Notes: generated by a model not told the origin, from the sequence alone. 64,000 bases of DNA from Escherichia coli (GCF_045037415.1 NZ_CP173440.1); one strand, 5' to 3'. Positions 334-47,492 are shown, counted from the stretch's first letter. Program-made: numbers and translations.

Positions 334-389
334 CCCAAAAGTAACTTTTGGGCCTATGTACACTCCCGCCACCCGGTAAAAGTGACTTT
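334..389. promoter_or_regulatory. two copies of the plasmid-wide palindrome AAAGTWACTTT
   Basis: 19-bp perfect palindrome CCCAAAAGTAACTTTTGGG (334-352) and AAAGTGACTTT (379-389), 57-110 nt upstream of the minus-strand start at 277. Confidence 0.6.
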
Positions 390-2462: not shown

Positions 2463-2479
2463 CAGAAAGTTACTTTCTG
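2463..2479. promoter_or_regulatory. palindromic motif copy CAGAAAGTTACTTTCTG
   Basis: 17-bp perfect palindrome ending 8 nt before ATG 2488. Confidence 0.6.
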
Positions 2480-4065: not shown

Positions 4066-4569
4066 TTATTGATAGTGTTTTATGTTCAGATAATGCCCGA
4101 TGACTTTGTCATGCAGCTCCACCGATTTTGAGAACGACAGCGACTTCCGTCCCAGCCGTGCCAGGTGCTGCCTCAGATTCAGGTTATGCCGCTCAATTCG
4201 CTGCGTATATCGCTTGCTGATTACGTGCAGCTTTCCCTTCAGGCGGGATTCATACAGCGGCCAGCCATCCGTCATCCATATCACCACGTCAAAGGGTGAC
4301 AGCAGGCTCATAAGACGCCCCAGCGTCGCCATAGTGCGTTCACCGAATACGTGCGCAACAACCGTCTTCCGGAGCCTGTCATACGCGTAAAACAGCCAGC
4401 GCTGGCGCGATTTAGCCCCGACGTATCCCCACTGTTCGTCCATTTCCGCGCAGACGATGACGTCACTGCCCGGCTGTATGCGCGAGGTTACCGACTGCGG
4501 CCTGAGTTTTTTAAATGGCGGAAAATCGTGTTGAGGCCAACGCCCATAATGCGGGCGGTTGCCCGGCAT
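4066..4569 (-). CDS. insB: IS1 InsB (made as InsAB' by -1 frameshift)
   Basis: 167-aa ORF recognised as IS1 InsB. A-run frameshift site (TTTAAAAAAC on the coding strand) at about 4506-4515. Confidence 0.9.
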
Positions 4570-4763
4570 CCAACGCCATTCATGGCCATATCAATGATTT
4601 TCTGGTGCGTACCGGGTTGAGAAGCGGTGTAAGTGAACTGCAGTTGCCATGTTTTACGGCAGTGAGAGCAGAGATAGCGCTGATGTCCGGCGGTGCTTTT
4701 GCCGTTACGCACCACCCCGTCAGTAGCTGAACAGGAGGGACAGCTGATAGAAACAGAAGCCAC
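4488..4763 (-). CDS. insA: IS1 InsA
   Basis: 91 aa, [43 protein letters not shown] (zinc finger plus HTH). Confidence 0.9.
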
Positions 4764-4867
4764 TGGAGCACCTCAAAAACACCATCATACACTAAATCAG
4801 TAAGTTGGCAGCATCACCGGCCGTTCGTAGGAAAAAAGGAGACGCCAGTTAGCGGCGGACTGTGGGA

Positions 4868-5227
4868 TTACCGGCGTTTATCAATAGTGTCAACTATCAA
4901 GCTTATGTAAGCAGACCTCGAATCTTCACTGTCGGACTGTCTTGCATAGGCTTTTTTTATTGCTCCATCGGAGAGTGGATGCTTCATATTGAGGAATAAC
5001 ATTACCACCAACACATCAATACAGCGGGCGGATGCAAAATACTCATAGATATAATCGTACGTCGTTTTTTTAAAATCGCCCCCCACTGAGCCGAGGTCAA
5101 TCAGCGCTGCGATTATCTCTCCTGCCTCGCCATTCCTAACAGTTGGCTTCAACTGGCTTAGTTTTCGTTTCAGAGCCTCCTCGCGATCTCGTTGTTGCTG
5201 TAGATAATCAGAAAGGCTATTAAACAT
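4868..5227 (-). CDS. hypothetical protein
   Basis: 119-aa ORF. Confidence 0.5.
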   Translation of the reverse strand: MFNSLSDYLQQQRDREEALKRKLSQLKPTVRNGEAGEIIAALIDLGSVGGDFKKTTYDYIYEYFASARCIDVLVVMLFLNMKHPLSDGAIKKAYARQSDSEDSRSAYISLIVDTIDKRR

Positions 5228-5457
5228 TCAAACTGGTCCTGTGCATTCTCATCTCACCTATCATACGGACATTCTTAAAATCTTGGAACCAGGGAAAGAT
5301 ACGGTCGGATCTAGACCGGTAGTGGGGGAGTATCGACTTTTACCTTTCGAAAAAACAGTCGTTTTATAAAAGGGGTTGCAGCGTACCTAAAATAAGGTAC
5401 AATTTGTTTGAAAGGGAAGGCTACGGAGCCGCCCATTAACTGCCTAAGGAGGCGTTC

Positions 5458-5901
5458 ATGTCAACTATCCCTCAATTAGCTAAGCTGGGTTTTTCCTCAG
5501 ATGTTGTTCCTGTGATCAATACCCCAGCGCCCAATATGACTCGCGGATTTGAGCGCTTTCATATCAGCTATAACAGTTCATCTGCCGGGTATGGCTGCGA
5601 TACAACCGCTCTGGTTCTGGATGGCCGTGTGTTTTTCGTACTGAACGGGGACCATGCCTGTGATATGACCAAAGCTGCCGCAGCACGCGGTATCGATGGC
5701 TGCATTGACGTCTTCATAGACCGTATCGAGTCGGCTAGTCGACACAGCGAGCATAAAATGGCTATTGGTCTGACAAACGATGAGTTCGGATTGATGCCGA
5801 CCGCGCTCGCTGTCATCGGAGAAGAGAACATCCTCCGTCTTCTATCTGCTGTGACAGGAAACGTTCAGGACTTTTCAGCGTACGGTATTAATCAGGATTA
5901 A
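5458..5901 (+). CDS. hypothetical protein
   Basis: 147-aa ORF; AGGAGG SD 7 nt upstream. Confidence 0.6.
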   Translation: MSTIPQLAKLGFSSDVVPVINTPAPNMTRGFERFHISYNSSSAGYGCDTTALVLDGRVFFVLNGDHACDMTKAAAARGIDGCIDVFIDRIESASRHSEHKMAIGLTNDEFGLMPTALAVIGEENILRLLSAVTGNVQDFSAYGINQD

Positions 5902-7371: not shown

Positions 7372-8787
7372 ATGTCTGAATTTGATTCCCTTGCGGAAGA
7401 GCTGGTGGAAGAGGCACGTAATGAAGAGGCCAGACAACAGCAAAGGGACCTGTCCCTGATAGGGAAAGTCCTTGAAATCTATGATCAGAAGTTTGTTGCC
7501 GAACTTTTGCGTAAGCTGGGAAATTCAGACTGGACCAGGGAGACCCTGAACCGCTGGATTAACGGGAAATGTGGGCCACGTTCACTTACCGTAACTGAGG
7601 CATCGCTTCTTGAAAGACTGCTCCCGCAGCCGCCAGCAAACCATCCCAATTATGCTTTTCGCTTCATCGATCTCTTCGCCGGTATCGGCGGTATCCGTCA
7701 TGGGTTTGAAGCCATTGGCGGCCAGTGTGTTTTCACAAGTGAATGGAACAGCTATTCAGTCAAAACTTATAAAGCAAACTGGTACTGCGATCCCGAAGCG
7801 CATATCTTCAATTCGGACATCCGCGATGTGACACTCAGTCATAAGGAAGATGTCAGCGAAGAAGATGCCTACGCCCATATCGATAAATCGATACCCGATC
7901 ATGATGTTCTGCTGGCTGGTTTCCCGTGTCAGCCCTTTAGCCTTGCAGGTGTGAGCAAAAAAAACTCACTTGGCCGTAAACACGGTTTTGAATGTGACAC
8001 CCAGGGGACCCTATTCTTTGATGTGGCTCGTATCATCATGGCAAAAAAACCGGCCATCTTTGTACTCGAGAACGTCAAGAACCTCAAAAGCCATGATAAA
8101 GGGAAAACTTTCCGTGTCATTATGGATACCCTGAATGAGCTCGGTTACGACGTTGCTGATGCTGAAGCTACAGGTGCGGATGATCCAAAAGTTATAGATG
8201 GTAAGCATTTCATCCCTCAGCACCGGGAGCGTATTGTTCTGGTGGGCTTCAGACGTGACCTGAATTTAAGTCAGGGATTTAGCCTTGCTGACATTTCTTC
8301 GCTGTTTCCTGAAAGAAAAGTGCTGTTCAGAGAACTCCTTGACAGTGATGTTGATGATAAATACACACTAACGCCAAAGCTGTGGGATTATCTCTATAAA
8401 TACGCCAAAAAACACCAAGAGAAAGGTAATGGCTTTGGCTTTGGCCTGGTTAAACCAGACGATGATAAAGCTATTTCCAGAACAATATCAGCAAGGTATC
8501 ACAAAGATGGCAGTGAATCGCTTGTTGATCGTGGTTGGGATAGCGAACTCGGTGAAAAAAACTTTAATGACCCTGATAACATGGCCAGACGTCCTCGGCG
8601 TCTAACACCGCGTGAGTGTGCCCGGCTAATGGGATTTGAGCAGCCAGGGAAAGTAACTTTTCGAATCCCAGTATCCGATACTCAGGCTTACCGCCAGTTC
8701 GGAAATTCCGTCATCGTGCCGGTATTTGATGCGGTAGCGAAATTGCTGGAGTCACGGATCATCGAGGCTGTAAAGTCTCGGAAATAG
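7372..8787 (+). CDS. DNA cytosine-5 methyltransferase, Dcm/M.EcoRII-like (probably CCWGG)
   Basis: Motifs [10 protein letters not shown] (I), [11 protein letters not shown] (IV), ENVKNL (VI), QFGNSV (X). Near-collinear with Dcm/M.EcoRII as I recall them. ATG 7372 follows a GGAGG SD. Confidence 0.92.
8650..8660. promoter_or_regulatory. intragenic copy of AAAGTAACTTT inside the methylase gene
   Basis: Exact motif encoding GKVTF, at a position where Dcm and M.EcoRII have different residues. Confidence 0.4.
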
Positions 8788-11362: not shown

Positions 11363-11377
11363 AGAAAGTTACTTTCT
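11363..11377. promoter_or_regulatory. palindromic motif copy AGAAAGTTACTTTCT
   Basis: Exact core 11365-11375; overlaps the stop of 11369..11662, between convergent genes. Confidence 0.5.
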
Positions 11378-12040: not shown

Positions 12041-12051
12041 AAAGTTACTTT
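12041..12051. promoter_or_regulatory. palindromic motif copy
   Basis: Exact AAAGTTACTTT, 110 nt upstream of the start at 11931. Confidence 0.5.
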
Positions 12052-14793: not shown

Positions 14794-14806
14794 GAAAGTT
14801 ACTTTC
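14794..14806. promoter_or_regulatory. palindromic motif copy GAAAGTTACTTTC
   Basis: 42 nt upstream of the start at 14752. Confidence 0.55.
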
Positions 14807-16293: not shown

Positions 16294-16683
16294 ATGTTAG
16301 AGAAAATTTATTACCTTGCCCTTTTTCTGATTGCGATTTGCATTATTCGCGGTTTAGTTTTCGCATGGAGCAGACGCAGTCCATTGGCCCTGACGTTGAC
16401 CATCAGTGCCCTGGTGATTTGTCTGGCTTTCCATACTCTGGATAACTCGGTAGCAACAGGTATGGATCAGATATTGTCCGGTACAAGGGACTTTACACAG
16501 TGTGACTTCATTGACCAGCAATCAGCTGAAATCAGCGGTCGTGGCTATCCGGTCGTTGTCCTAATGTGCGATGACGGTCAACAGGTTGTTAATGCTGACG
16601 TTTACTCACGACAGCTGATGCAGAATCAGGATTGCAACACGTTCAGGGGGGTGACAAGTTGTCACTTACTGCCAGAAAAGTAA
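16294..16683 (+). CDS. membrane-anchored hypothetical protein
   Basis: 129 aa with two N-terminal TM helices. Confidence 0.5.
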   Translation: MLEKIYYLALFLIAICIIRGLVFAWSRRSPLALTLTISALVICLAFHTLDNSVATGMDQILSGTRDFTQCDFIDQQSAEISGRGYPVVVLMCDDGQQVVNADVYSRQLMQNQDCNTFRGVTSCHLLPEK

Positions 16684-16687
16684 CTTT
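16677..16687. promoter_or_regulatory. palindromic motif copy
   Basis: Exact AAAGTAACTTT supplying the stop codon of the previous ORF; 127 nt upstream of ATG 16814. Confidence 0.5.
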
Positions 16688-19277: not shown

Positions 19278-20522
19278 ATGTCGCGTCTGAACATGGATTT
19301 AATCGAAGCTATTTATTCCGAATCCGACCGCGAACTCACTAATAATGAGTTGTATCGGGAGGTTCAGTCTCGCCTTGCTATTCCAGATGATGCGTTCAAT
19401 GCAAAAGAAAAATTCGGTACGGCGGGTGTTCCCCATAATAAAATTAAACACCGTATTCGCTGGTTTCAACAAACCCTAAAATCCATGAACGTCATCGAGC
19501 GTTTAAGCTCTGGCCGTTCTCTATGGCGTCACTGTCGGAAAAACAAATCAGGCCTATCCGAGGTCAGAGAAGGGGCTTGTTTAGTGGCATTCAGTACAGA
19601 TCTCGGGGTGGCGATTTTAGGCAACTCTACAATGGTGTTACCAGGCAATACCGAGCCGGTCCATCTCTGCCTGACATCTCCACCGTATCCACTCAGAAAG
19701 CAGCGGGATTATGCCGCAGCCTTCAAAAACGACAGTGACTATATTGATTTCATCGTGGAAGCCATTAGACCAATCGCCCGCCAGCTGGTTAACGGTGGTT
19801 CTGTTGTGCTGAATATCGGTCAGGATATTTTTAATCCGGGTCAGCCTTCTCGTTCCCTCTACCCTGAGCGCCTATTACTGGCCTTGTGCGAGAAACTAGA
19901 CCTCTACCTGATGGACCGGGTGCCGTGGGTGAATATGAGCAAACCACCCTCACCGACATATTGGGCCTGCCGTAAGAAAGTTCAGCTGCTGGCCGGTCAT
20001 GAAATGATTTTCTGGCTGACCAATAATCCTGATGCTGTCCGCTCCTGTAACCAGCGCGTTTTGCAGCCCCACACTGAGAGCCACAGCGCGTTGGTTGCCA
20101 GAGGCGGAGAGAACCGTACGACCATCTACGGTGACGGTGCCCATGTCGTGAAACCAGGGGCCTTTTCTCAATCCACTGACGGGGCTATTCCCAAAAATGT
20201 AATAATCCGAGGCCATGCATGTGCTGACACTCGCCGGTTTCATCAGGAGGCTAAACGCTTAGGGCTTCCTGCTCATGGGGCGATGTTCCCTACGGCCATC
20301 CCCGATTTTTTCATACGGTTCCTGACGGAGGAAAACGAGCTTGTTGTTGATCCTTTTGCCGGTTCTCTCAAGACAGGCCTGGCCGCCGAGCGGCTCAACC
20401 GCAGATGGATGTGTTTTGATAGTATTCTGGAATGGTTACGAATTTCAGCCACCGGCTTTTTTTCTGACTTCCCGGGATTTGAGATGAACCCGATTATTGA
20501 TAACGGTGAGTTGTTCGCGTAA
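19278..20522 (+). CDS. N4-cytosine/N6-adenine DNA methyltransferase (beta class)
   Basis: Motif IV LTSPPYP precedes motif I VVDPFAGSLKTG. About 110-aa N-terminal extra domain. Confidence 0.85.
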   Translation: MSRLNMDLIEAIYSESDRELTNNELYREVQSRLAIPDDAFNAKEKFGTAGVPHNKIKHRIRWFQQTLKSMNVIERLSSGRSLWRHCRKNKSGLSEVREGACLVAFSTDLGVAILGNSTMVLPGNTEPVHLCLTSPPYPLRKQRDYAAAFKNDSDYIDFIVEAIRPIARQLVNGGSVVLNIGQDIFNPGQPSRSLYPERLLLALCEKLDLYLMDRVPWVNMSKPPSPTYWACRKKVQLLAGHEMIFWLTNNPDAVRSCNQRVLQPHTESHSALVARGGENRTTIYGDGAHVVKPGAFSQSTDGAIPKNVIIRGHACADTRRFHQEAKRLGLPAHGAMFPTAIPDFFIRFLTEENELVVDPFAGSLKTGLAAERLNRRWMCFDSILEWLRISATGFFSDFPGFEMNPIIDNGELFA

Positions 20523-20590
20523 GCGGCCGTTACGAATAAACATTATTCACTCTGTCTTTTGCGGAGTGAACGATCACAGGAGATGGCGAT

Positions 20591-23500
20591 ATGCCTGACA
20601 TTATCCCGCACCAACAACAGCCGGAACGTCTTCATAAATTTCACTCCCTCAAGGGAGGGCAATACTGGCGCGCAAAAAACGATATTCCTGAGCAATGTAT
20701 TGAACAGGATGAAGTGTTGCTGATTGAGTCGCTCCGCTGGGTTGATAATGCACTCCATACTGTGATCCTCCGCACCCATCCGTCAAAATACGGTAAAGAC
20801 TTTGTTTTCAAATTTACCGATGCTGCTGGCCGTAGCTGCCGCACCACGAAATCGTTTAAAGAGCATCGATTTCTGTTTAATGACTTTCTGGATAAATTTG
20901 AATTTGCAGATGATGGGCAGGATATCCGGAGCCAGGAACTGCTTGCAGCTCAAAACCGGGTTAGCCAGCTGACTCAGCAAATGACCGAAACCATGTCTGA
21001 TCCTGAAGCACTGCGTACGGAACTCCTCGGCAGGGTTGAAGCAAAGAAAGCCAGTTCATCGACGCCAGGCGATGACAAAAAGCAACTTCCTATGGTTATG
21101 GAGCTGTCTTCATCAACTGAGATAGCGTCTCTTGGCACAGCTCTGTCATCAGGTATCGATGAAGCCAAAATAGCACAGCTCCAGCAGGCTGTTGAGTTCA
21201 GACATGAAATCGCACAGGCGCAAATCGACTGGATTAAAGAAAAGAATAATGCGATTTCGAGAGCCGTCATGGCTATTACTCCCTATCTGGAAGAGTCGGC
21301 TGCCGCCCAGCTTGCCATTGCCGAAGAAAGTCGCGAAACGCTGAATAAACTGATGGACGGTATAAAGTCCCTTGACCTCTACATCGGGAAAGATGTGGTC
21401 GTGAACACTATCAGGGAGGGTGAATCAGCACCGCCACACATTCCCTTGACGTTCGTACAGCGTAAGCTGGCCGTCGATGAGGAAACGGCTGTTTTTCTCG
21501 ATATAGGAGAATGGTTTGATTTTGAAAAGTTGCCACTTTTTTTCCATGCATTAAACAACCATCCAGGGCTGGTGGAGCAGATCTTCCCGTCACAGCGCTG
21601 CGTGGTATGTATGACCACTACCCGTCGCTATATTGATTATCAGGACCGTTGGGCTAACTGGGAGCTCAATGCAAAAAACCAGACGGTCTTTCTGATGGTT
21701 CGGGACGGCGAACGGCTGTTCCAGGTTTACTCTGGAGTAGAGTCTCACCTCGGCGCTCATACACTTTTTCCAACCACCGATGAACAGGGAAATATCTTTC
21801 GAGGCATTGACGGTTCGCAGGTTACGTTCAATGACGTGTCATACACTGACAAGCTTAAAGCGCATGAGATGGTTGCTCTGCATTATTACCGGTTTCTTAT
21901 CCTGTGCTGCGGGCTCGACCACCGGCTTAAGCTGTTTGGCGAGTTCTACGACCCTCAGGACCGCTTAAGTTTCGTCTCTATGGCGTTCCAGGAGAAGTAT
22001 TGTCGATTCATTTATGATCATGATGGTACTGGCCTTCTGGACGATCCTGATGCGAAAGTGCGCCCCTCTATTGAGGAGTATATAACCCAGGCCAATAGCC
22101 ATTTGCGCTCAGGTTCAAGAGTGTTTTGCGAGTGGAGAACTGTTTGTACACCAAATACTGCGCCGGGTGTTGTGAAAGTCGATACTAGTACCAGTTACCG
22201 ATCCTATTATTTTACTGCCGATTTCATCAATGATGATGGAATGGCAGTGGCCTTTACCCGCAACAATGAGATTTGCGTGGAGGTTCCGGTCAAAAAAGAT
22301 ATCTTCCGTCGCACCCGGGCTAATGATGTACGTGAATTTAATGCGAAAGTATCTCTCACTAATTTTCAGCGTGATCCGTGGGATGACGCCTGCAGCGTGG
22401 GATTCCTCTGTCTGGACGCGGTTAAAGCCGATGATCTGGATTATTACATCCACAGCCGTTCCAGCCGTAAGAATTTTATGTACTACATAAAGCTCTTCAA
22501 ACGCCTTTCAGCTGTCCTGAGAGTGGAAGAAGAGCAGGAGAAGCCCTATCGGCAAAAGCTCATCAGAGCGCTGGTGGATGGCAACATAGGCACAAAAACT
22601 AATCGTGCTGAAATCGTCGACAAGACAGTCATCACCTGGCGGGCGGACAAAAAAGGTCAGCCGCTTAGTGAAGGAATTGACAACGAGAAAAGCTGGAAAG
22701 CATTACTTGGCATGATGGACCTGATCGCCTGGCGCGGTTTGAGCCATAGAGAGGCTGCAGTGGAGATGGCCATCTCCCGGGGTAGCAAACCGTTACGTCT
22801 TATAGTCACGACAAATGCCAGACTGGCTCTGTATGTTACCCCTACAGCCGAGGAACGTGACGATCGCGTGGAAAAACATAAGTGGGCCATGCTGCTGACC
22901 TTTAAAATGTTAGCAAAAGGTCTGACTCTTGATTCCAGTAAACCTGCGTTGCTAAGCAAAAATAGTGTGTGCGAAACAACCCTCTATGAATGGCCGGAGG
23001 CCAATGAGTGGAAAGGGTTGAAATCAGTGTTCTCCAGCTTTAACGAAAAGCAAAGAGCGTTTGAATATATTGAGACAGGCAAAGAGGACCTCCGAAAACT
23101 GTCTCCGGCTAACCCCTCAGAATTTGAGGCTGGGGTACGTGAATGGATGACGGCCTACTGCGAAATGAATGATTACCGCAAAACCGGGGGCCAGGTGCAG
23201 CAGCCGAGATTGATGATACCGGTAGGCATCTACATTAACCGGGGAGACTGGCAGTATATCTACGTCACTACAGAGAGTGAGGCCGCTGGGTATTCTTATC
23301 ACAACTGCAGCGAACGCCTGAAAAAGGAACTTTTTCAGGAATATGTTTCACGCTTTGCTCACCCGGAAGGAAAGCTCGAACGGCTTGAAACTCGGGGGAA
23401 CCAACTGGCATTGGTCATGACGAACAAAACTCCCGACATCGGCATGTTCTGTGCAGATCGCAATATTGAAATGGATAGCGTGAATTATGGACCTTTATCT

Positions 23501-23971
23501 TACAGTGCCTACAGCCAGCTTCAGCGAATTGAAAACCGATTGATTTTTGTCCTAGCTGAAGCGGAACGCGGGTTACATCGCAGGATTTATATTGCCGATA
23601 ACCTTAAAAGCGACAATGGTGAGTTTATCATAGATGAACTCCTTGGTTCCTCACATCTACAGGCACAGTCTCCCGTTGATGTTTTCGAAGTCATTCTACC
23701 TAAGTCGTTGTCAGAAGGCCCGCTGCCGGTAATGAAATCGAGTGGTGAAATCTACCGTATTCACCACTGGTTTGATATCTGTCCAAAAGGCGCTGAGGCT
23801 AATGTTTCATTGAGCAATATCGAGGCACCAGTAAATAAGGTTACCAGACACAGTTTCGATAGCAGGGAGGCGGCAATCATGCATATCCTGATGCAGAAGG
23901 ATACCGTTAGGAAAAATATCTCCGAAGACAGATTCAACACGCCAGAAGGCGTTGTCGAAAGGTGGTATTAG
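20591..23971 (+). CDS. large protein of unknown function (1126 aa)
   Basis: Single uninterrupted ORF. Coiled-coil-like region at about aa 110-260. I could not find Walker A, nuclease or methylase motifs. Confidence 0.8.
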   Translation: MPDIIPHQQQPERLHKFHSLKGGQYWRAKNDIPEQCIEQDEVLLIESLRWVDNALHTVILRTHPSKYGKDFVFKFTDAAGRSCRTTKSFKEHRFLFNDFLDKFEFADDGQDIRSQELLAAQNRVSQLTQQMTETMSDPEALRTELLGRVEAKKASSSTPGDDKKQLPMVMELSSSTEIASLGTALSSGIDEAKIAQLQQAVEFRHEIAQAQIDWIKEKNNAISRAVMAITPYLEESAAAQLAIAEESRETLNKLMDGIKSLDLYIGKDVVVNTIREGESAPPHIPLTFVQRKLAVDEETAVFLDIGEWFDFEKLPLFFHALNNHPGLVEQIFPSQRCVVCMTTTRRYIDYQDRWANWELNAKNQTVFLMVRDGERLFQVYSGVESHLGAHTLFPTTDEQGNIFRGIDGSQVTFNDVSYTDKLKAHEMVALHYYRFLILCCGLDHRLKLFGEFYDPQDRLSFVSMAFQEKYCRFIYDHDGTGLLDDPDAKVRPSIEEYITQANSHLRSGSRVFCEWRTVCTPNTAPGVVKVDTSTSYRSYYFTADFINDDGMAVAFTRNNEICVEVPVKKDIFRRTRANDVREFNAKVSLTNFQRDPWDDACSVGFLCLDAVKADDLDYYIHSRSSRKNFMYYIKLFKRLSAVLRVEEEQEKPYRQKLIRALVDGNIGTKTNRAEIVDKTVITWRADKKGQPLSEGIDNEKSWKALLGMMDLIAWRGLSHREAAVEMAISRGSKPLRLIVTTNARLALYVTPTAEERDDRVEKHKWAMLLTFKMLAKGLTLDSSKPALLSKNSVCETTLYEWPEANEWKGLKSVFSSFNEKQRAFEYIETGKEDLRKLSPANPSEFEAGVREWMTAYCEMNDYRKTGGQVQQPRLMIPVGIYINRGDWQYIYVTTESEAAGYSYHNCSERLKKELFQEYVSRFAHPEGKLERLETRGNQLALVMTNKTPDIGMFCADRNIEMDSVNYGPLSYSAYSQLQRIENRLIFVLAEAERGLHRRIYIADNLKSDNGEFIIDELLGSSHLQAQSPVDVFEVILPKSLSEGPLPVMKSSGEIYRIHHWFDICPKGAEANVSLSNIEAPVNKVTRHSFDSREAAIMHILMQKDTVRKNISEDRFNTPEGVVERWY

Positions 23972-26699: not shown

Positions 26700-27704
26700 T
26701 TATGCTACATAAGTTTGCTGTCGTGCCGTTAGGGCCCAGGCTATTCTGGCCAGCTTGTTTGCCAGAGCACAAGTGACGACAAAGTTGCTTTTCCTACACA
26801 GTAGATCCCTGACCCAATCGGCCAATTTGCCAGACTGGTGTTCCAGTTTTTGTATGAATACCCTGGCACATTGAACCAACAAAGTTCGGATCTTTTTGTT
26901 ACCTCGCTTACTAATTCCCAGCAATGTCGTCCGACCTCCCGTGCTGTACTGTCGGGGTACCAGCCCTGTTGCCGCCGCAAAGTCACGACTGCTGGCGTAC
27001 TGCTTCCCGTCGCCAATCTCAGTTGAAATAGTACTCGCTGTCAGTGTTCCGACGCAGGGAATGCTCAGCAAGCGCTGTCCAATCTCATCTTCGTCCAACT
27101 TTCGTTTCAACTGGGATTCCAAATCTTTAATCTGCTCAACAAGATAGTGATAATGCTGTTGTAATTTCAGCAATAACTGGCTGAGGTATAGAGGCAAACT
27201 ATTGTCCTCAAGAAGGGTACTCAGTCGGCTAATAACGGCAGCTCCTCGTGGAACGCTGATGCCAAATTCCAGCAGAAAAGCATGCATCTGATTGGTTGTT
27301 TTTACCTTATCCTGAACCAGGGATTCACGGACACGATGCAGCGCACGCATTGCCTGCTGAGATTCAGTTCTGGGCTGTACAAAACGCATAGACGGACGCG
27401 ATGCAGCTTCACAAATAGCTTCGGCGTCGACAAAGTCGTTTTTGTTACTTTTAACGAATGGACGGACAAATTGTGGTGATATCAGCTTAGGAAAATGCCC
27501 CAACTCTTCCAACTTGCGTGCCATAAAGTGAGAGCCACCACAGGCTTCCATTGCGATGGTTGTAGCGGGGCATGTCGCCAAAAATTCGATTAACTTTGGC
27601 CGTGTAAATTTTTTACGGTAAACAGCCTTGCCGCGACGATCTTGGCAATGAATATGGAAAGAGTTTTTACCCAGATCGATACCAATGAGCGCAATGTTTT
27701 CCAT
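26700..27704 (-). CDS. IS110-family DEDD transposase
   Basis: 334 aa; MENIALIGIDLGKNSFHIH... N-terminal RuvC-like signature typical of IS110/IS1111. Confidence 0.92.
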   Translation of the reverse strand: MENIALIGIDLGKNSFHIHCQDRRGKAVYRKKFTRPKLIEFLATCPATTIAMEACGGSHFMARKLEELGHFPKLISPQFVRPFVKSNKNDFVDAEAICEAASRPSMRFVQPRTESQQAMRALHRVRESLVQDKVKTTNQMHAFLLEFGISVPRGAAVISRLSTLLEDNSLPLYLSQLLLKLQQHYHYLVEQIKDLESQLKRKLDEDEIGQRLLSIPCVGTLTASTISTEIGDGKQYASSRDFAAATGLVPRQYSTGGRTTLLGISKRGNKKIRTLLVQCARVFIQKLEHQSGKLADWVRDLLCRKSNFVVTCALANKLARIAWALTARQQTYVA

Positions 27705-29774: not shown

Positions 29775-31016
29775 TTATTGCTCTGAGTTTTTTTTCTGGA
29801 TTTTTTCCAGATGCTTATCGTAGCTGTCTTTGGCTGCAGTCAGCTGCAAAAACTCTTCATAGGTTAACGTCAGTTGATACTGGGCTTTAGCGAGAACCTC
29901 TGCACCGTCTTCCATAAAGGGAATTTCTTTCGCTTCGGTAACGATACGGTTAATAACATCAAGAGAGTTATCTACAATCTCTTTGGAGATTTTTTTCGGC
30001 AGCACGTCGAACACCGACGGCTGAGATTTGATATTTTGTTTAGGTTCGCGTTTCGCCGCAGGGGTCCGTTTCGGTTCGGATTTTTCACCGCCTTCCCCTT
30101 CTTCTGAACCGCCACCCGCAACGCCTGCATCATTGCCTGCAGAGCTTTCAATGACACCAGCAGCCGCGTCAGAGGCACTATTAGATCCGTTACCTGCATC
30201 AGTCGTTGTAATGGTTGTCACATTGCCATCAGATTCACCATTAGTGTCGTTTTCACCTGTACGCTTAGCAAGAAGGACCTGACCAATGGTTTTGTCGGTA
30301 GCTTTGCCAAACTTATCAAACGCTTCCTGAATGATAGCGACACAGTTATCCGGGTATTTCTCCATCACGTCGAGTGCTGCGTAGTATGCTACTACACCTT
30401 TAACGATCAGACCTTTTAACGCCTCCGGGGCGGTGTGAACTTTGAGCAATTTACGGACATGGGTTACGGAGACTTTACGGTCTGCGGCCAGCTCTTCGAT
30501 GCTCATAGGCTCTTCTGCGCTGTTGTGCATGCGATACATGGACTCAGCCTGAGCAACGATCGAGACCGGAAGTTGATCGTTTCCTTTAAGATTAAAAAGT
30601 TCTGCTTTACTGTCAGAGCCACGGAATTCGTCAACACGAATTTTATCAACCGGGCCCTCACCCCGTTCTGCGCGAATTTTATTAGCCAGTGGAATTGCAC
30701 GGTGACGGCAGTGTCCCTGACGAATGACAACCTGACCATCACGAACCTGGACAACCATAGGGGCCATTTCCAGAGGGCTATCGGCATATTGCTGAGCCAG
30801 ACGCGCCAGGTGGTCCTTAACTTCCGGGAGTTCCCAGTAAGCCTCACCCAGGCCAGCGGTACGTGTGTTAAAGCCAGGGATGATGTTCAGATGCGTCGGG
30901 TCCATAACAAGACCATTGCCCAGACGACCACCGATACCATTTTTTTCTAAGAAGGTACGCAGAGAAACATTTTCGTTTTTGGCTTTAGCTGGAGTTGCCA
31001 TAGTTGCAGTAGTCAT
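29775..31016 (-). CDS. ParB/KorB-like DNA-binding protein
   Basis: ParB/Srx N-domain (VVIRQGHCRHRAIPLAN, GxxRxxA-like box). HTH SIEELAADRKVSVTHVRKLLKV. Long Gly/Asp/Ser-rich linker. No parA neighbour. Confidence 0.8.
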   Translation of the reverse strand: MTTATMATPAKAKNENVSLRTFLEKNGIGGRLGNGLVMDPTHLNIIPGFNTRTAGLGEAYWELPEVKDHLARLAQQYADSPLEMAPMVVQVRDGQVVIRQGHCRHRAIPLANKIRAERGEGPVDKIRVDEFRGSDSKAELFNLKGNDQLPVSIVAQAESMYRMHNSAEEPMSIEELAADRKVSVTHVRKLLKVHTAPEALKGLIVKGVVAYYAALDVMEKYPDNCVAIIQEAFDKFGKATDKTIGQVLLAKRTGENDTNGESDGNVTTITTTDAGNGSNSASDAAAGVIESSAGNDAGVAGGGSEEGEGGEKSEPKRTPAAKREPKQNIKSQPSVFDVLPKKISKEIVDNSLDVINRIVTEAKEIPFMEDGAEVLAKAQYQLTLTYEEFLQLTAAKDSYDKHLEKIQKKNSEQ

Positions 31017-31126
31017 TGAATTTTCCTCTTCCTGTTGTATGTGGGTAAACGGTCATTGCCGTTGTTAGACCCAGGATACATTCTCAAAACGCTCCATCAA
31101 GCCCCTATTTTCACTTTGGCGTGAAA

Positions 31127-31885
31127 AAAGTTACTTTTTTTTGTTCACGGCAAAAATTTTACACATGATTCTTCTGTGGCAAGGGCTCCAGGAGCCGGAT
31201 TTCGGTGTTTATGTGAAGAAAATTTTTTCAGTGGTATGCCGGGGATCATAATTTTTGGATAATTTTGAAGGAGATACGAACAGTGAAGGTGATTACAGAC
31301 GATGCATGTCTCATTGATTTTTAGGACATAAATCGTCAAAAGTTACTTTTTTGAGGGTGATAACGACACTTGAACACGCTTCTCAGGACAGAAAAGTAAC
31401 TTTTTTCAGTGCTGAGCCCACTCTTTCAAAAGTTACTTTTTGATAAAACCTGCGTTCGGGGAAGGAGGCAAAGCTTGCGGGGGGAAGGAAGAAACTATTT
31501 TTATCTGATTGTGCAAATCATAGACGCTCAGCCCGTCATGTTGATCCCCGTACGCAGATAGACAAATGTTCGGGGTTTAAAAAGTTACTTTTCAGGTGCT
31601 GTGCTGTTTCACGCTGCCGGATACATAGCAGGTACAGGTATCCTGTCCTGCTATGAGAAGACCAGCGCCCCTGTTTAGTTCGTCTCTGTTTGCAGCTCTT
31701 TGCGAGCGTTTGCGATCAACTCGTTCACTTCATCGCGGTCAAATCCTGGCATTGCGGGCAAAACCGTATCGGAAGGAACGGCATCAATCCACTCAAGAGC
31801 CGCAAGCAGTGCGCTTAGTAATTGTTCATTAATTTTCATTAGACCGCCTATTTCAACCTTTTTACTATCTTTAAAAAGTTACTTT
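31127..31885. promoter_or_regulatory. cluster of six AAAGTWACTTT palindromes upstream of the parB-like gene (parS/operator-like array)
   Basis: Exact cores at 31127, 31339, 31393, 31429, 31581 and 31875. Confidence 0.6.
31675..31839 (-). CDS. small hypothetical protein (54 aa)
   Basis: Below the track cutoff; MKINEQLLSALLAALEWIDAVPSD... Confidence 0.35.
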   Translation of the reverse strand: MKINEQLLSALLAALEWIDAVPSDTVLPAMPGFDRDEVNELIANARKELQTETN

Positions 31886-37264: not shown

Positions 37265-37275
37265 AAAGTAACTTT
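37265..37275. promoter_or_regulatory. palindromic motif copy
   Basis: Exact AAAGTAACTTT, 56 nt upstream of 37209. Confidence 0.5.
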
Positions 37276-38556: not shown

Positions 38557-38665
38557 GGTTATATTCCGTATGAGAACGTGCGACCTAGAAAAGTAGAAAC
38601 ATGTCACTGTAAACCAGGTTATCATATTAAAACGTTCCTGCAACTCCTATTATCTTATCATTTAT

Positions 38666-38676
38666 AAAGTAACTTT
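38666..38676. promoter_or_regulatory. palindromic motif copy
   Basis: Exact AAAGTAACTTT, 110 nt upstream of ATG 38556. Confidence 0.5.
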
Positions 38677-39776: not shown

Positions 39777-39787
39777 AAAGTAACTTT
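39777..39787. promoter_or_regulatory. palindromic motif copy
   Basis: Exact AAAGTAACTTT next to hairpin CCCCGCTTATGCGGGG (39741-56). Confidence 0.5.
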
Positions 39788-43468: not shown

Positions 43469-43479
43469 AAAGTTACTTT
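43469..43479. promoter_or_regulatory. palindromic motif copy
   Basis: Exact AAAGTTACTTT, 81 nt upstream of 43388. Confidence 0.5.
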
Positions 43480-45126: not shown

Positions 45127-45233
45127 AGAAACTCCCTGAAAGAAAAGGTTAGTACGAAAAATCTTTCTTCGTTGAAACCAGGATACCTTTTTTTACCTCT
45201 TCATCAACCCCCATTTTTTAAATTTCCTTAAAA

Positions 45234-45244
45234 AAAGTTACTTT
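45234..45244. promoter_or_regulatory. palindromic motif copy
   Basis: Exact AAAGTTACTTT, 108 nt upstream of 45126. Confidence 0.5.
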
Positions 45245-45514
45245 CTCGGAGTCTGACATTCTGGATTAAAACCCTATAATTCATTATGCTCCAGTGTTTA
45301 CGCACAGGGTTTAAAAAAACAGGATCTTAAGCCAAAATCATTGAGTAATGATGAGGGGTATTAGACTGGTACGAACCGTAAATACGTAAGTTTCATGCAC
45401 CAAACATTTTCTGATTGCATTTCAGATTTTCTGTAACAGAACTAGAACGAATAGTTGAGAATGTCATGTTTAAAACAAAGCCCCGGGACTAAACCGGAGC
45501 TGCATTTAGAATTT

Positions 45515-46096
45515 TCAGATGCAAATTGCAGAGTTTAGCTGGGGAAGTCTGTCGGTTAATAAACTGTATTCGGAGAGTCTGTCTGTTTCCAAGGTATGCA
45601 AGAGCAATGTTTCCGTCCTGGACAATAAAACATTATTCTCCCATACATCATGATGTAATTTATTGACCGGTTCTCCGGTTCGATATGATTCCATCATTGG
45701 TTGTATTTTAACCGGCGCGGCGTTGTGATAAGAAGGATGGAGCCTCGGTTTAAATTCATCAAGCCCAATATTTAAGCCTATATATTGTGATATTAGATCA
45801 AAATCACAATCCAGCACTATAGTTTTAATATTGTGCTGAACAATACCGATGTCTTCTATGTACCATTTATATTGTGTTGTAAAATGACTTACTTTTTTAT
45901 CATATTCAAGAAGTAAGCCAATCATTGCTTTACGATTTTTTTGCATACCCACATTAAGCCGTTTATTAGGAAACGGTCTTCCGCATGAAAGCGCATCGCC
46001 TTTAATCTCAAACTTCAGTTCCGGGATCGTCACTGATTCAAGTCGGCATTTATTTGAAATGGTGTGGTATAGTGTTGGTACAAGATGAAGATGCAT
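45515..46096 (-). CDS. hypothetical protein
   Basis: 193-aa ORF in an AT-rich segment. Confidence 0.55.
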   Translation of the reverse strand: MHLHLVPTLYHTISNKCRLESVTIPELKFEIKGDALSCGRPFPNKRLNVGMQKNRKAMIGLLLEYDKKVSHFTTQYKWYIEDIGIVQHNIKTIVLDCDFDLISQYIGLNIGLDEFKPRLHPSYHNAAPVKIQPMMESYRTGEPVNKLHHDVWENNVLLSRTETLLLHTLETDRLSEYSLLTDRLPQLNSAICI

Positions 46097-46134
46097 GACT
46101 CCCCCCGAAAAAGATGTAGTCCCAGCAGCTTAGT

Positions 46135-46428
46135 TTATTCAGCCCAGAACGGGGTTAATGGTACGCGGTCTCCCCTGAGTAGTTGCTTTAAATTGGCCTC
46201 GTGAAAAGTCCGATAATGCTCAATGTTCGCTTCGCAAAAGGCTTCAAGTTCAAGTTCGGTCAGTCGAGGAGAATAAATCAGGAGTGAATCGGTTTCATCA
46301 TCAGCAAACTGCTCTGTTCCATCGGGATACATGAGTCGTGGAACTCCTCCAATAAGCATTTCCACCTCAGTTATAAAAGGTGTCGTATCTTGAGACTGGA
46401 AATTCAAAAAAACAGTTCTGTCACACAT
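46135..46428 (-). CDS. hypothetical protein
   Basis: 97-aa ORF. Confidence 0.5.
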   Translation of the reverse strand: MCDRTVFLNFQSQDTTPFITEVEMLIGGVPRLMYPDGTEQFADDETDSLLIYSPRLTELELEAFCEANIEHYRTFHEANLKQLLRGDRVPLTPFWAE

Positions 46429-47475: not shown

Positions 47476-47492
47476 GCAAAAGTAACTTTTGC
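47476..47492. promoter_or_regulatory. palindromic motif copy GCAAAAGTAACTTTTGC
   Basis: 17-bp perfect palindrome, 7 nt upstream of start 47469, directly before the RBS. Confidence 0.6.

Follow-up and report, generated by a model that had tools for sequence, protein, structure and literature searches.

We analysed a 64,000-nucleotide stretch of DNA from Escherichia coli (GCF_045037415.1 NZ_CP173440.1; hereafter the window), which is near-identical to large Klebsiella pneumoniae plasmids typed IncFIB/IncHI1B, MOBH and MPF_F, the pNDM-MAR-like group. Its minus strand encodes a ParB-like protein, ParBL1, and the DNA upstream of this gene carries six copies of the palindrome AAAGTWACTTT (W, A or T), further copies of which lie elsewhere in the window. 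An initial annotation, made from the sequence alone, had proposed this protein as the factor that reads the palindrome. We find that ParBL1 is a genuine orphan ParB/KorB/Noc-superfamily gene of the conserved IncHI backbone, and that the palindrome is a strongly selected, dispersed and mostly intergenic cis element of the same backbone. A KorB-like regulatory role, in which ParBL1 reads the palindrome and controls backbone promoters, is our best reading of the locus, and one to which we give slightly less than an even chance.

For whole-plasmid counts we used NZ_CP117741.1 (341,460 bp) as the reference. In a direct comparison it was collinear with positions 14001-39000 of the window (25 kb) save for one ISKpn26 insertion. 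Beyond this part the window holds an ISCfr12 copy that is not in NZ_CP117741.1, and in the first 14 kb of the window some site offsets differ. The coordinates of all features are collected in Table 1.

ParBL1 is an orphan ParB-family protein

ParBL1 is annotated as 'hypothetical protein' in all near-identical Klebsiella plasmids. Its single sequence gave nothing significant in Pfam-A, in NCBIfam or in a phmmer search of Protein Data Bank (PDB) sequences, and the Pfam ParB_N model did not match it. PHROG 1033 ('ParB-like partition protein') matches residues 36-245 with E=1e-23. A word-indexed homolog search returned close relatives only (at least 79% identity), and an exhaustive HMMER search returned 255 relatives. 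From these we drew a 67-sequence alignment (A1), which served as the family profile and for the AlphaFold2 model. A1 was too diverse for a genome-wide scan for relatives, which with alignment A2 gave only 3 loci. Searched against the PDB, the A1 profile recovered ParB, Spo0J and Noc (E=8e-17 to 1e-14) and KorB (2e-6), with coverage of both the N-terminal domain and the helix-turn-helix (HTH). Pfam HTH_ParB (PF17762) is matched by 58 of the 67 family members; ParBL1 itself lies just under the threshold, yet aligns throughout the domain. The KorB domain PF08535 and KorB_C have no match in ParBL1, and 10 of the 67 relatives touch PF08535.

The AlphaFold2 model has a predicted local distance difference test score (pLDDT) above 95 for residues 20-255. 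In a Foldseek search of the PDB its top matches were exclusively ParB, KorB, Noc and Spo0J, the N-terminal domain included, with template modelling (TM) scores of 0.6-0.74 for the DNA-binding domains of Noc, ParB and KorB, and with the best superposition on the KorB-KorA complex 8qa9 (TM 0.65-0.67). Family profile, PHROG match and structural comparison thus agree on the ParB/Srx N-domain and ParB-type HTH named in the initial annotation, despite the sub-threshold Pfam and NCBIfam scores, and the model bears out the long low-complexity linker as well. The length of this linker differs among orthologs. A full-length alignment with the R27 and R478 orthologs shows the helical C-terminal domain to be conserved inside the ParBL1 clade only; we presume it to be a dimerisation module.

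Several features of the ParB nucleotide pocket can be recognised. In the Box I-like PGFNTR, N50 and R52 are invariant in the 67 relatives. Box II (G101-H-C-R104-H-R106-A107) aligns to the GERRxRA of the ParB proteins in 4umk and 7bnr, has G101 and R104 invariant in the 67 relatives, and gives the N-domain the GxxRxxA arginine patch of the ParB/Srx type. R104 corresponds to the second arginine of GERR, R80 in Bacillus subtilis ParB, which is required for binding of cytidine triphosphate (CTP) (as cited in PMC13370423). The ParB fold and part of the nucleotide pocket are thus present, and ParBL1 may use a nucleotide.

No ParA gene is annotated within ~40 kb of ParBL1 in near-identical plasmids, in line with the initial annotation, and we found no conserved small partner ORF (open reading frame) or HTH protein downstream of it. 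The N-terminal GRLGNGL resembles the ParA-activating LG[K/R]GL peptide. All ParBL1 orthologs, however, have G-N-G-[L/M] at a position where the ParA-binding consensus requires G-[K/R]-G-[L/F/I] (PMC12704722), and in the model the G-N-G-L segment is a confidently folded beta-hairpin, not a free peptide. ParBL1 is not the partition protein of the plasmid.

A dispersed palindrome under purifying selection

The window contains AAAGTWACTTT 25 times without mismatch, where base composition predicts 0.05 copies, and 100 dinucleotide-preserving shuffles of the window never contained more than one. Across the 25 aligned copies the conserved unit is a 13-bp palindrome, RAAAGTWACTTTY, with a degenerate centre and nothing conserved further out; each copy in the cluster upstream of ParBL1 carries a longer form, AAAAGTWACTTTT (15 bp with flank). 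The 17-bp palindrome of the initial annotation is therefore to be shortened.

The reference plasmid holds 79 exact copies (0.23 expected), and ~12 further ones with a C or G centre bring the total to ~90. The IncHI1B backbone (0-140 kb, 170-201 kb and ~247 kb) holds most of them, and four map to the tellurium-resistance (ter) region at 297-315 kb or close to it; the resistance island (140-170 kb) and the other virulence-plasmid-derived segments of the reference hold none. In the part of the reference that matches the window, 27 of 29 copies are outside annotated coding sequences, with non-coding DNA making up 29% of the sequence (binomial P=5e-13). The distance from palindrome centre to the next start codon has its mode at ~105-120 bp and ranges from 16 bp to >1 kb, some copies being just 17-50 bp from an ATG. 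We infer that such positional variety fits proteins that spread or slide along DNA better than a classical operator. Three copies (247335, 247672 and 247868) lie in a 1.4-kb unannotated stretch of the reference, 247249-248635, which follows the DUF1173 genes and ends at an IS1; it may be a remnant of a backbone region severed by the IS1 insertion.

We assessed selection by aligning the 890 bp upstream of ParBL1 with the corresponding DNA of Klebsiella grimontii (L027), whose ortholog is 87% identical. Each of the six copies has an aligned counterpart there. Their arms differ at 1 of 60 positions, compared with 136 of 473 in the surrounding distal non-coding DNA (Fisher P=2e-7), and the central base has changed in three of the six copies, always between A and T. 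The proximal 180 bp, with one palindrome, the -35 and the -10, are almost identical. The arms are thus under purifying selection. A literature search for the motif strings found no paper on this palindrome in a plasmid context, and its recurrence along the IncHI backbone points to a plasmid-wide control system without a published description.

The palindrome cluster and proposed promoter of ParBL1

The six copies in the 760 bp upstream of ParBL1 (31127-31885) form the densest cluster of the window, and no other 1 kb of the 341-kb reference is as rich in the palindrome. Count and density are thus as first described; the sixth copy, however, sits beyond a separate 54-residue ORF (31675-31839, minus strand), 41 bp upstream of it and outside the intergenic gap that holds the other copies. 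Rfam has no match in the gap upstream of ParBL1, and the palindrome is the sole repeat there.

A generic sigma-70 promoter scan left the proposed ParBL1 promoter below threshold, and we assign it solely because of a three-way cassette similarity and its conservation across lineages. When oriented by their downstream genes, all on the minus strand, three promoters (31073-31137, 45180-45244 and 38616-38676) are near-superimposable and share the same layout: the palindrome, 22-26 bp, (GG)TTGATG or TTGCAG, 16 bp, TATCCT or TAACCT, and then GG. This cassette looks like a reused promoter module for backbone genes. The centre of palindrome 1 would lie at about -66 from the inferred transcription start site, which would place it upstream of RNA polymerase and not under it.

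A second group of palindromes adjoins repHI1B (~52234-53313, minus strand). Four iteron-like repeats (AACGTACGACGGTTAAT) at 51772-52051 are bracketed by the palindromes at 51594 and 52161, with two further copies at 51306 and 51477. Because the palindromes bracket these repeats, their reader may also act at the replication origin.

Conservation across IncHI-like elements

No palindrome is more frequent than RAAAGTWACTTTY in any IncHI-like (MOBH/MPF_F) sequence that we retrieved. It ranks first in R27, R478 and eight other IncHI-like loci; the sequences examined include metagenomic and genomic contigs from Photorhabdus, Buttiauxella and others. R27 (IncHI1) has 46 copies, 42 of them with a W centre against 0.15 expected, and a 41-kb part of R478 (IncHI2) has seven. 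ParBL1 orthologs are found in R27, R478 and other IncHI-like elements and are 35-38% identical to the window protein.

Most of the orthologs examined have one or two copies of the palindrome at most ~260 bp upstream of their start codon (-105 and -223 in R27, -101 and -228 in R478, -109 and -211 in L013, -257 in L009); the K. grimontii locus has five copies from -116 to -856, and the window has one at -116 plus five more. The equivalents of palindrome 1 are the copies at -105 in R27, -101 in R478, -109 in L013 and -116 in L027. The ParBL1 promoter is among the regions most consistently occupied across lineages, though not unique in this, and it is from this conservation that the cluster draws its weight. 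A recognition helix of the form [S/T]xxH[LIV]Rx[LM][LV][KR] is kept in all five ParBL1 lineages. When helix and palindrome are compared across elements, every IncHI-like element has the same palindrome, and non-IncHI relatives have either another one, that of their KorB-type ParB (IncC, Comamonas), or none visible (L030).

In the transcriptome of R27, ParBL1 likely corresponds to R0104, as judged by gene order only. R0104 scored 2196 and 2155 units at 25 and 37 °C and rose 2.6-fold in an htdA mutant, and its neighbours R0102, R0103 and R0106-R0109 were scored as not expressed (PMC7366339 supplement).

Some plasmids have lost ParBL1. In the IncHI1B/IncFIB plasmid pKP13f (NZ_CP004000.1, L022), typed as conjugative, the single place found by tblastn is a paralog, ParBL2 (described below), and ParBL1 is apparently missing; pKP13f keeps ParBL2, Tra2 and 13 palindromes in a 24.6-kb Tra2 region. 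In PLSDB, ~567 related plasmids have ParBL2 and ~528 have ParBL1, each at 60% identity or more. ParBL1 is thus dispensable for short-term survival of the plasmid, and its loss is silent on the identity of the reader.

Three ParB-family genes on one plasmid

The plasmid carries three ParB-family genes: a canonical parB, ParBL1 and ParBL2. The canonical parA-parB pair occupies 65441-67698 of the reference, ~11 kb to the left of the point where the window begins. It has a centromere-like array of its own, ~41 tandem 66-bp repeats spanning 2.7 kb (reference 61928-64610; L003 11928-14610); three more repeats follow parB (reference 67881-68102; L003 17881-18102). Each repeat carries AACAACCCCGTTGTT, and AAAGTWACTTT occurs in none. 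With its own repeat centromere and a different palindrome, the canonical partition ParB is largely excluded as reader.

ParBL2 (WP_004196657.1, 392 residues; reference 56925-58103, L003 6925-8103) adjoins Tra2 and lies outside the window. It is 31% identical to ParBL1 over N-domain and HTH, and matches TIGR00180 with E=7e-8. By blastp, R27 92336-93541 and R478 (L017 19959-21143) fall in the ParBL1 clade, and R27 45191-46348 in the ParBL2 clade. In the reference, palindromes lie at -117 and -296 of ParBL2, and a four-copy cluster occupies the nearby Tra2 divergent promoter (54173-54504). The R27 gene R0042 is annotated as 'partition protein', ranks among the genes with the highest expression, and both growth at 25 °C and the htdA mutation induce it (PMC7366339); it follows an adenine methylase gene and therefore corresponds to ParBL2. 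A second R27 'partition protein', R0153, was considered as a third paralog and rejected: the 406-residue protein (144482-145702) has no blastp match to ParB-like proteins. Judged by its place beside the methylase, R0153 probably corresponds to the neighbouring thermonuclease-family gene.

Which protein reads the palindrome?

No other single protein is as good a candidate as ParBL1: it belongs to a fitting family, the sites have a fitting format, palindromes are conserved in its own promoter, its recognition helix is conserved, and the canonical ParB is largely excluded. What ties protein to palindrome is circumstantial, and we hold this assignment tentatively, as a little short of an even bet. 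The interpretation given in the initial annotation is thus supported in part; it missed ParBL2, which lies outside the window and could not be seen from it, the HtdA-TrhR/TrhY regulon, and the existence of relatives without ParBL1. Several observations weigh against ParBL1. The palindrome is invariant while the protein has diverged to ~35% identity, which would fit a more conserved reader too. At least two copies are likewise kept across lineages at the origin of transfer (oriT; mobI-trhR) and at the Tra2 divergent promoter, and in simulations the excess of the ParBL1 cluster over random scatter in non-coding DNA is marginal (P ~0.05). An xxH[VI]R helix is shared by the IncC orphan and by a non-IncHI relative with no palindrome in its flanks, so that the helix by itself does not specify the motif. 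In the nucleotide pocket, the first GERR arginine is replaced by Cys103, and Box III keeps N146 only, with Gly145 in place of the Mg-coordinating Glu, so that CTP hydrolysis, or even binding, may differ from that of canonical ParBs. The paralog ParBL2 and many uncharacterised backbone proteins are available as alternative readers. Finally, ~7% of related PLSDB plasmids, pKP13f among them, lack ParBL1 and keep the motif. The initial annotation would have taken such plasmids as grounds to reject ParBL1, but they are otherwise near-identical to the rest, so that the motif had no time to decay; we regard them as recent deletions that carry little weight.

The reader could instead be some other IncHI factor, either a component of the HtdA-TrhR/TrhY circuit or a small DNA-binding protein, with ParBL1 serving an unrelated role such as establishment after transfer, as HerB/YfjB does for F; this would not greatly surprise us, although we rate it as somewhat unlikely. 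In R27, 139 of 181 expressed genes rise in the htdA mutant at 25 °C, and HtdA-TrhR/TrhY together with H-NS and Hha controls most R27 genes (PMC7366339); that paper gives no binding site for this circuit, nor did other searchable literature yield one. The motif follows the IncHI backbone and not the wider ParB-like family, being missing from the IncC, Comamonas and L030 relatives, ~60% of the backbone genes are hypothetical in the annotation of near-identical plasmids, and HerB is itself an orphan plasmid ParB-like protein that acts without a defined motif (PMC13370423). A TrhR/TrhY box, however, is weakened by R27 itself: copies are present in the AC and H/R promoter regions, but the promoter regions of the F, Z and AN operons, long-established targets of TrhR/TrhY-HtdA, contain no palindrome even with one mismatch when they are assigned from annotation rather than from mapped transcription start sites. 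PF, the standard reporter for TrhR/TrhY-HtdA, thus has no copy, and the palindrome is therefore probably not the TrhR/TrhY response element. In addition, the candidate TrhR, TrhY, HtdA, HtdF and HtdK of the reference plasmid have no detectable known DNA-binding domain, a homodimer is a likelier reader of a perfect palindrome than a TrhR/TrhY pair, and no small HTH partner is conserved beside ParBL1.

That ParBL2, or both paralogs, read the palindrome, which would make ParBL1 merely one target, seems to us decidedly unlikely. ParBL2 belongs to the same subfamily and is kept in plasmids that lost ParBL1, R0042 is highly expressed in R27 and induced under conjugation-promoting conditions (PMC7366339), and palindromes lie upstream of ParBL2 genes in several elements (-117/-296 in the K. 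pneumoniae reference, -43 in L019, -13 in L020, -114/-291 in L032). Its recognition helix, however, is hypervariable between lineages that share the identical palindrome (SEMAVRQIIS, SNTTIAALIR, SAVTVTNYIR, TTAYVKKLLS), and R27 ParBL2 has only a one-mismatch copy upstream. We consider it very improbable that the palindrome is the site of a host (Enterobacterales) protein exploited by IncHI plasmids. The invariance of the motif across plasmids whose proteins have diverged to ~35% identity and whose hosts range from Klebsiella to Photorhabdus would suit such a factor, but the plasmid also holds ~150 kb of accessory DNA derived from other Klebsiella replicons, in which the motif does not occur, and sister plasmid families in the same hosts use other palindromes. 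We know of no enterobacterial regulator with an AAAGTWACTTT site. Hardly credible, in our judgement, is the centromere proposed in the initial annotation, with the upstream cluster as parS and ParBL1 as a partition adaptor for a distant ParA. A ParB-family protein, a multi-copy array beside its gene and the likeness of GRLGNGL to LG[K/R]GL would be expected of it. A complete parAB and a 2.7-kb centromere array belonging to it are nevertheless present on the plasmid, which makes a centromere role for the cluster unnecessary; the Asn that ParBL1 has in place of Lys/Arg (PMC12704722), in a segment modelled as beta-hairpin, does not suit a ParA partner; ~90 sites scattered at promoters are no centromere layout, and some stable relatives lack ParBL1.

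If ParBL1 is the reader, its dimers would recognise the 13-bp palindrome at ~90 mostly intergenic places of the backbone and from there control backbone promoters, its own included through the multi-copy upstream array. KorB works in this way on RK2, and the KorB-type ParB of IncC probably does too. The conserved Box I and Box II arginines suggest that ParBL1 still binds a nucleotide; in that case a sliding clamp would load at the palindromes, which would account for the variable distance between palindrome and promoter. The parts of this mechanism that we infer are ParBL1 as the reader, its nucleotide dependence and the direction of its effect, be it repression or counter-silencing. A more far-reaching version, in our opinion unlikely, would make ParBL1 a third regulatory layer: a clamp loading at 45-90 invariant palindromes would coat the AT-rich IncHI backbone and silence, or in a VirB-like manner counter-silence, genes bound by H-NS/Hha. 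Its reach would extend to oriT, the Tra2 promoters and the repHI1B origin, making one switch of transfer, replication and small hypothetical genes, in IncHI1, HI2, HI1B and relatives in Photorhabdus and Buttiauxella.

IncHI plasmids bear a heavy load of resistance and virulence, including the multidrug resistance of typhoid (IncHI1), mcr-1 (IncHI2) and, in the family of the window, NDM or hypervirulence hybrids (IncHI1B). Regulation of their backbone is only partly understood: HtdA-TrhR/TrhY and H-NS/Hha affect most genes. An invariant palindrome between most backbone operons offers a handle, as an affinity-capture probe, as mutable sites in reporters and with a candidate reader that can be tested cheaply.

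Other features of the window

Insertion sequence content differs among the near-identical plasmids. The ISCfr12 (ISL3) copy missing from the reference lies at 49864-51084 of the window, and the ISKpn26 of the reference (109453-110433) is inserted in a DUF957 gene just upstream of the palindrome cluster. Two IS4321 (IS110-family) copies in inverted orientation, at 26700-27704 (minus strand) and 53366-54370 (plus strand), bound a segment with ParBL1 and the cluster; plasmid phvKpST395_NDM1_1657 (L001) has this segment in the opposite orientation.

An orphan N6/N4-type DNA methyltransferase (414 residues) followed by a 1126-residue hypothetical protein occupies 19278-23971. Methyltransferase genes of similar size adjoin ParB-like genes in IncC (L021) and in L018, which suggests an ancestral pair of methylase and ParB-like gene, as judged by gene size and neighbourhood. 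The block at 55423-60397 comprises a hypothetical gene, a Cas6/CasE-like protein, a helicase (C-terminal helicase domain) and two more genes, with no CRISPR array near it; a truncated second Cas6/helicase copy lies near 249-250 kb of the reference. A group II intron spans 61771-63588, with Rfam RF02005 at 61771-61996 (186.6 bits) followed by the ltrA ORF at 62101-63588; this encodes a reverse transcriptase/maturase, and the identical protein, WP_004178082.1, is annotated again at 4165-5652 of the reference.

Table 1. Features of the ParBL1 locus and palindrome copies, in window coordinates (strand ".", none assigned)
Feature	Position	Strand	Remark
ParBL1 gene	29775..31016	-	413 residues, ATG start; WP_004197197.1; PHROG, profile, AlphaFold2/Foldseek
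C-terminal helical domain, residues 335-412	29781..30014	-	Helices 341-363 and 386-412 in model
Disordered Gly/Ser/Asp/Glu-rich linker, residues ~262-334	30015..30233	-	pLDDT <50 at 262-314
HTH_ParB-type DNA-binding domain, residues ~136-255	30252..30611	-	PF17762 in 58/67, alignments, fold matches
Recognition helix, residues 184-194, SVTHVRKLLKV	30435-30467	-	Within HTH_ParB-type domain
ParB/Srx-type N-terminal (CTPase-fold) domain, residues ~19-135	30612..30962	-	Invariant columns, HMM alignment, pLDDT >95
Inferred ParBL1 promoter	31073..31100	-	-35 TTGATG (31095-31100), 16-nt spacer, -10 TATCCT (31073-31078)
Palindrome 1 (AAAAAGTTACTTTTT)	31127..31137	.	Centre 116 bp from ParBL1 ATG, ~-66 from inferred transcription start site
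Palindrome 2	31339..31349	.	Exact match; conserved in L027
Palindrome 3	31393..31403	.	Exact match; one arm change in L027
Palindrome 4	31429..31439	.	Arms kept, centre flipped in L027
Palindrome 5	31581..31591	.	Arms kept, centre flipped in L027
Palindrome 6	31875..31885	.	Arms kept, centre flipped in L027
Dispersed palindrome copy	338..348	.	Exact match
Dispersed palindrome copy	2466..2476	.	~17 bp ahead of HNH-gene start
Dispersed palindrome copy	8650..8660	.	Within cytosine methyltransferase gene
Dispersed palindrome copy	11365..11375	.	Intergenic
Dispersed palindrome copy	12041..12051	.	Intergenic
Dispersed palindrome copy	14795..14805	.	48 bp upstream of minus-strand gene
Dispersed palindrome copy	16677..16687	.	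132 bp upstream of plus-strand gene
Dispersed palindrome copy	37265..37275	.	109 bp upstream of minus-strand gene
Palindrome 38666-38676 with shared cassette TTGCAG-N16-TAACCT	38616..38676	-	Three-promoter comparison
Dispersed palindrome copy	39777..39787	.	Intergenic
Dispersed palindrome copy	43469..43479	.	107 bp upstream of minus-strand gene
Palindrome 45234-45244 with cassette TTGATG-N16-TATCCT	45180..45244	-	Upstream of DUF4942 gene
Dispersed palindrome copy	47479..47489	.	Intergenic
Palindrome, second cluster	51306..51316	.	Beside repHI1B
Palindrome, second cluster	51477..51487	.	Exact match
Palindrome	51594..51604	.	Flanks iteron-like repeats
Palindrome	52161..52171	.	Between iteron-like repeats and repHI1B stop codon
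Dispersed palindrome copy	57074..57084	.	Within helicase gene
Dispersed palindrome copy	61475..61485	.	Unannotated stretch ahead of group II intron

Comparison with known systems

KorB of the IncP-1 plasmids RK2/RP4 binds 12 OB operators (TTTAGCSGCTAAA) and is also a partition protein, paired with IncC (ParA). ParBL1 shares with it the ParB-CTPase fold and HTH, a 13-bp 6-1-6 palindrome with degenerate centre, sites dispersed around the backbone at variable distances from promoters, and likely autoregulation. In format, the parallel drawn in the initial annotation is thus apt. The two proteins differ in that ParBL1 is an orphan without a ParA-binding motif, has ~90 sites compared with 12, and has no identified KorA- or TrbA-like partner. 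The C-terminus of ParBL1 is predicted to be helical, in contrast to the SH3-like dimerisation domain of KorB, and the similarity between the two is remote (profile E=2e-6).

A counterpart exists in the sister MOBH/MPF_F family IncC/IncA, where electrophoretic mobility shift assays show that 14 dispersed 22-bp inverted repeats (parS) are bound by the KorB-domain ParB encoded in the parAB053 operon (PMC10954446). Here again a palindrome recurs across the backbone, mostly intergenic, with one copy in the promoter of the regulator. The IncC palindrome has a different sequence, its reader is a ParA-partnered KorB-domain ParB and its sites serve partition, whereas IncHI plasmids have no KorB-type partnered ParB and instead a partnered ParB of another type with a tandem-repeat centromere. 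In a 24.6-kb region of the IncC plasmid p1002-NDM1 (L021), which encodes an orphan ParBL1 relative, we found four ACTTTCACATGTGAAAGT repeats, the published parS, at 1643, 4979, 16023 and 19438, and no AAAGTNACTTT. A Comamonas plasmid (L033) with the same gene layout, orphan relative included, has six copies of TTTTCGCATGCGAAAA (8775, 16147, 16183, 19771, 20918 and 27940), one of them 92 bp ahead of the orphan ParB-like gene and another ahead of parA. In the IncC/IncHI plasmid superfamily, the pairing of a dispersed palindrome with a ParB-fold reader is thus an established design.

The Shigella virulence plasmid encodes VirB, a CTP-binding regulator of transcription that loads at specific sites. 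Like ParBL1 it is an orphan plasmid ParB-like protein on an AT-rich, H-NS-silenced and temperature-controlled replicon; in IncHI plasmids, H-NS and Hha mediate thermoregulation (PMC7366339). The sites of VirB are few and its effect is to counteract silencing, and the profile match to its DNA-binding domain is very weak (E=0.58). Noc of Bacillus subtilis, an orphan ParB paralog with ~70 dispersed palindromic sites, is among the best sequence and fold matches of ParBL1, but is chromosomal, uses an N-terminal amphipathic helix to bind the membrane, and has its role in cell division, not in transcription. BisD of ICEclc and HerB/YfjB of F are orphan ParB-CTPases of conjugative elements with regulatory, non-partition roles (PMC12409273, PMC13370423). 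They differ from ParBL1 in that BisD activates transfer-competence genes together with BisC, and the 652-residue HerB has extra domains, targets the host chromosome and is without a defined motif. KorB, VirB, BisD and HerB/YfjB show that ParB-CTPases of mobile elements can work as repressors, counter-silencers, activators and host reprogrammers (PMC12409273, PMC13370423, PMC12704722). If our reading holds, ParBL1 would extend this set of ParB-CTPase switches repurposed for gene control, as a KorB-like global regulator split from partition, with sites multiplied about sevenfold to ~90.

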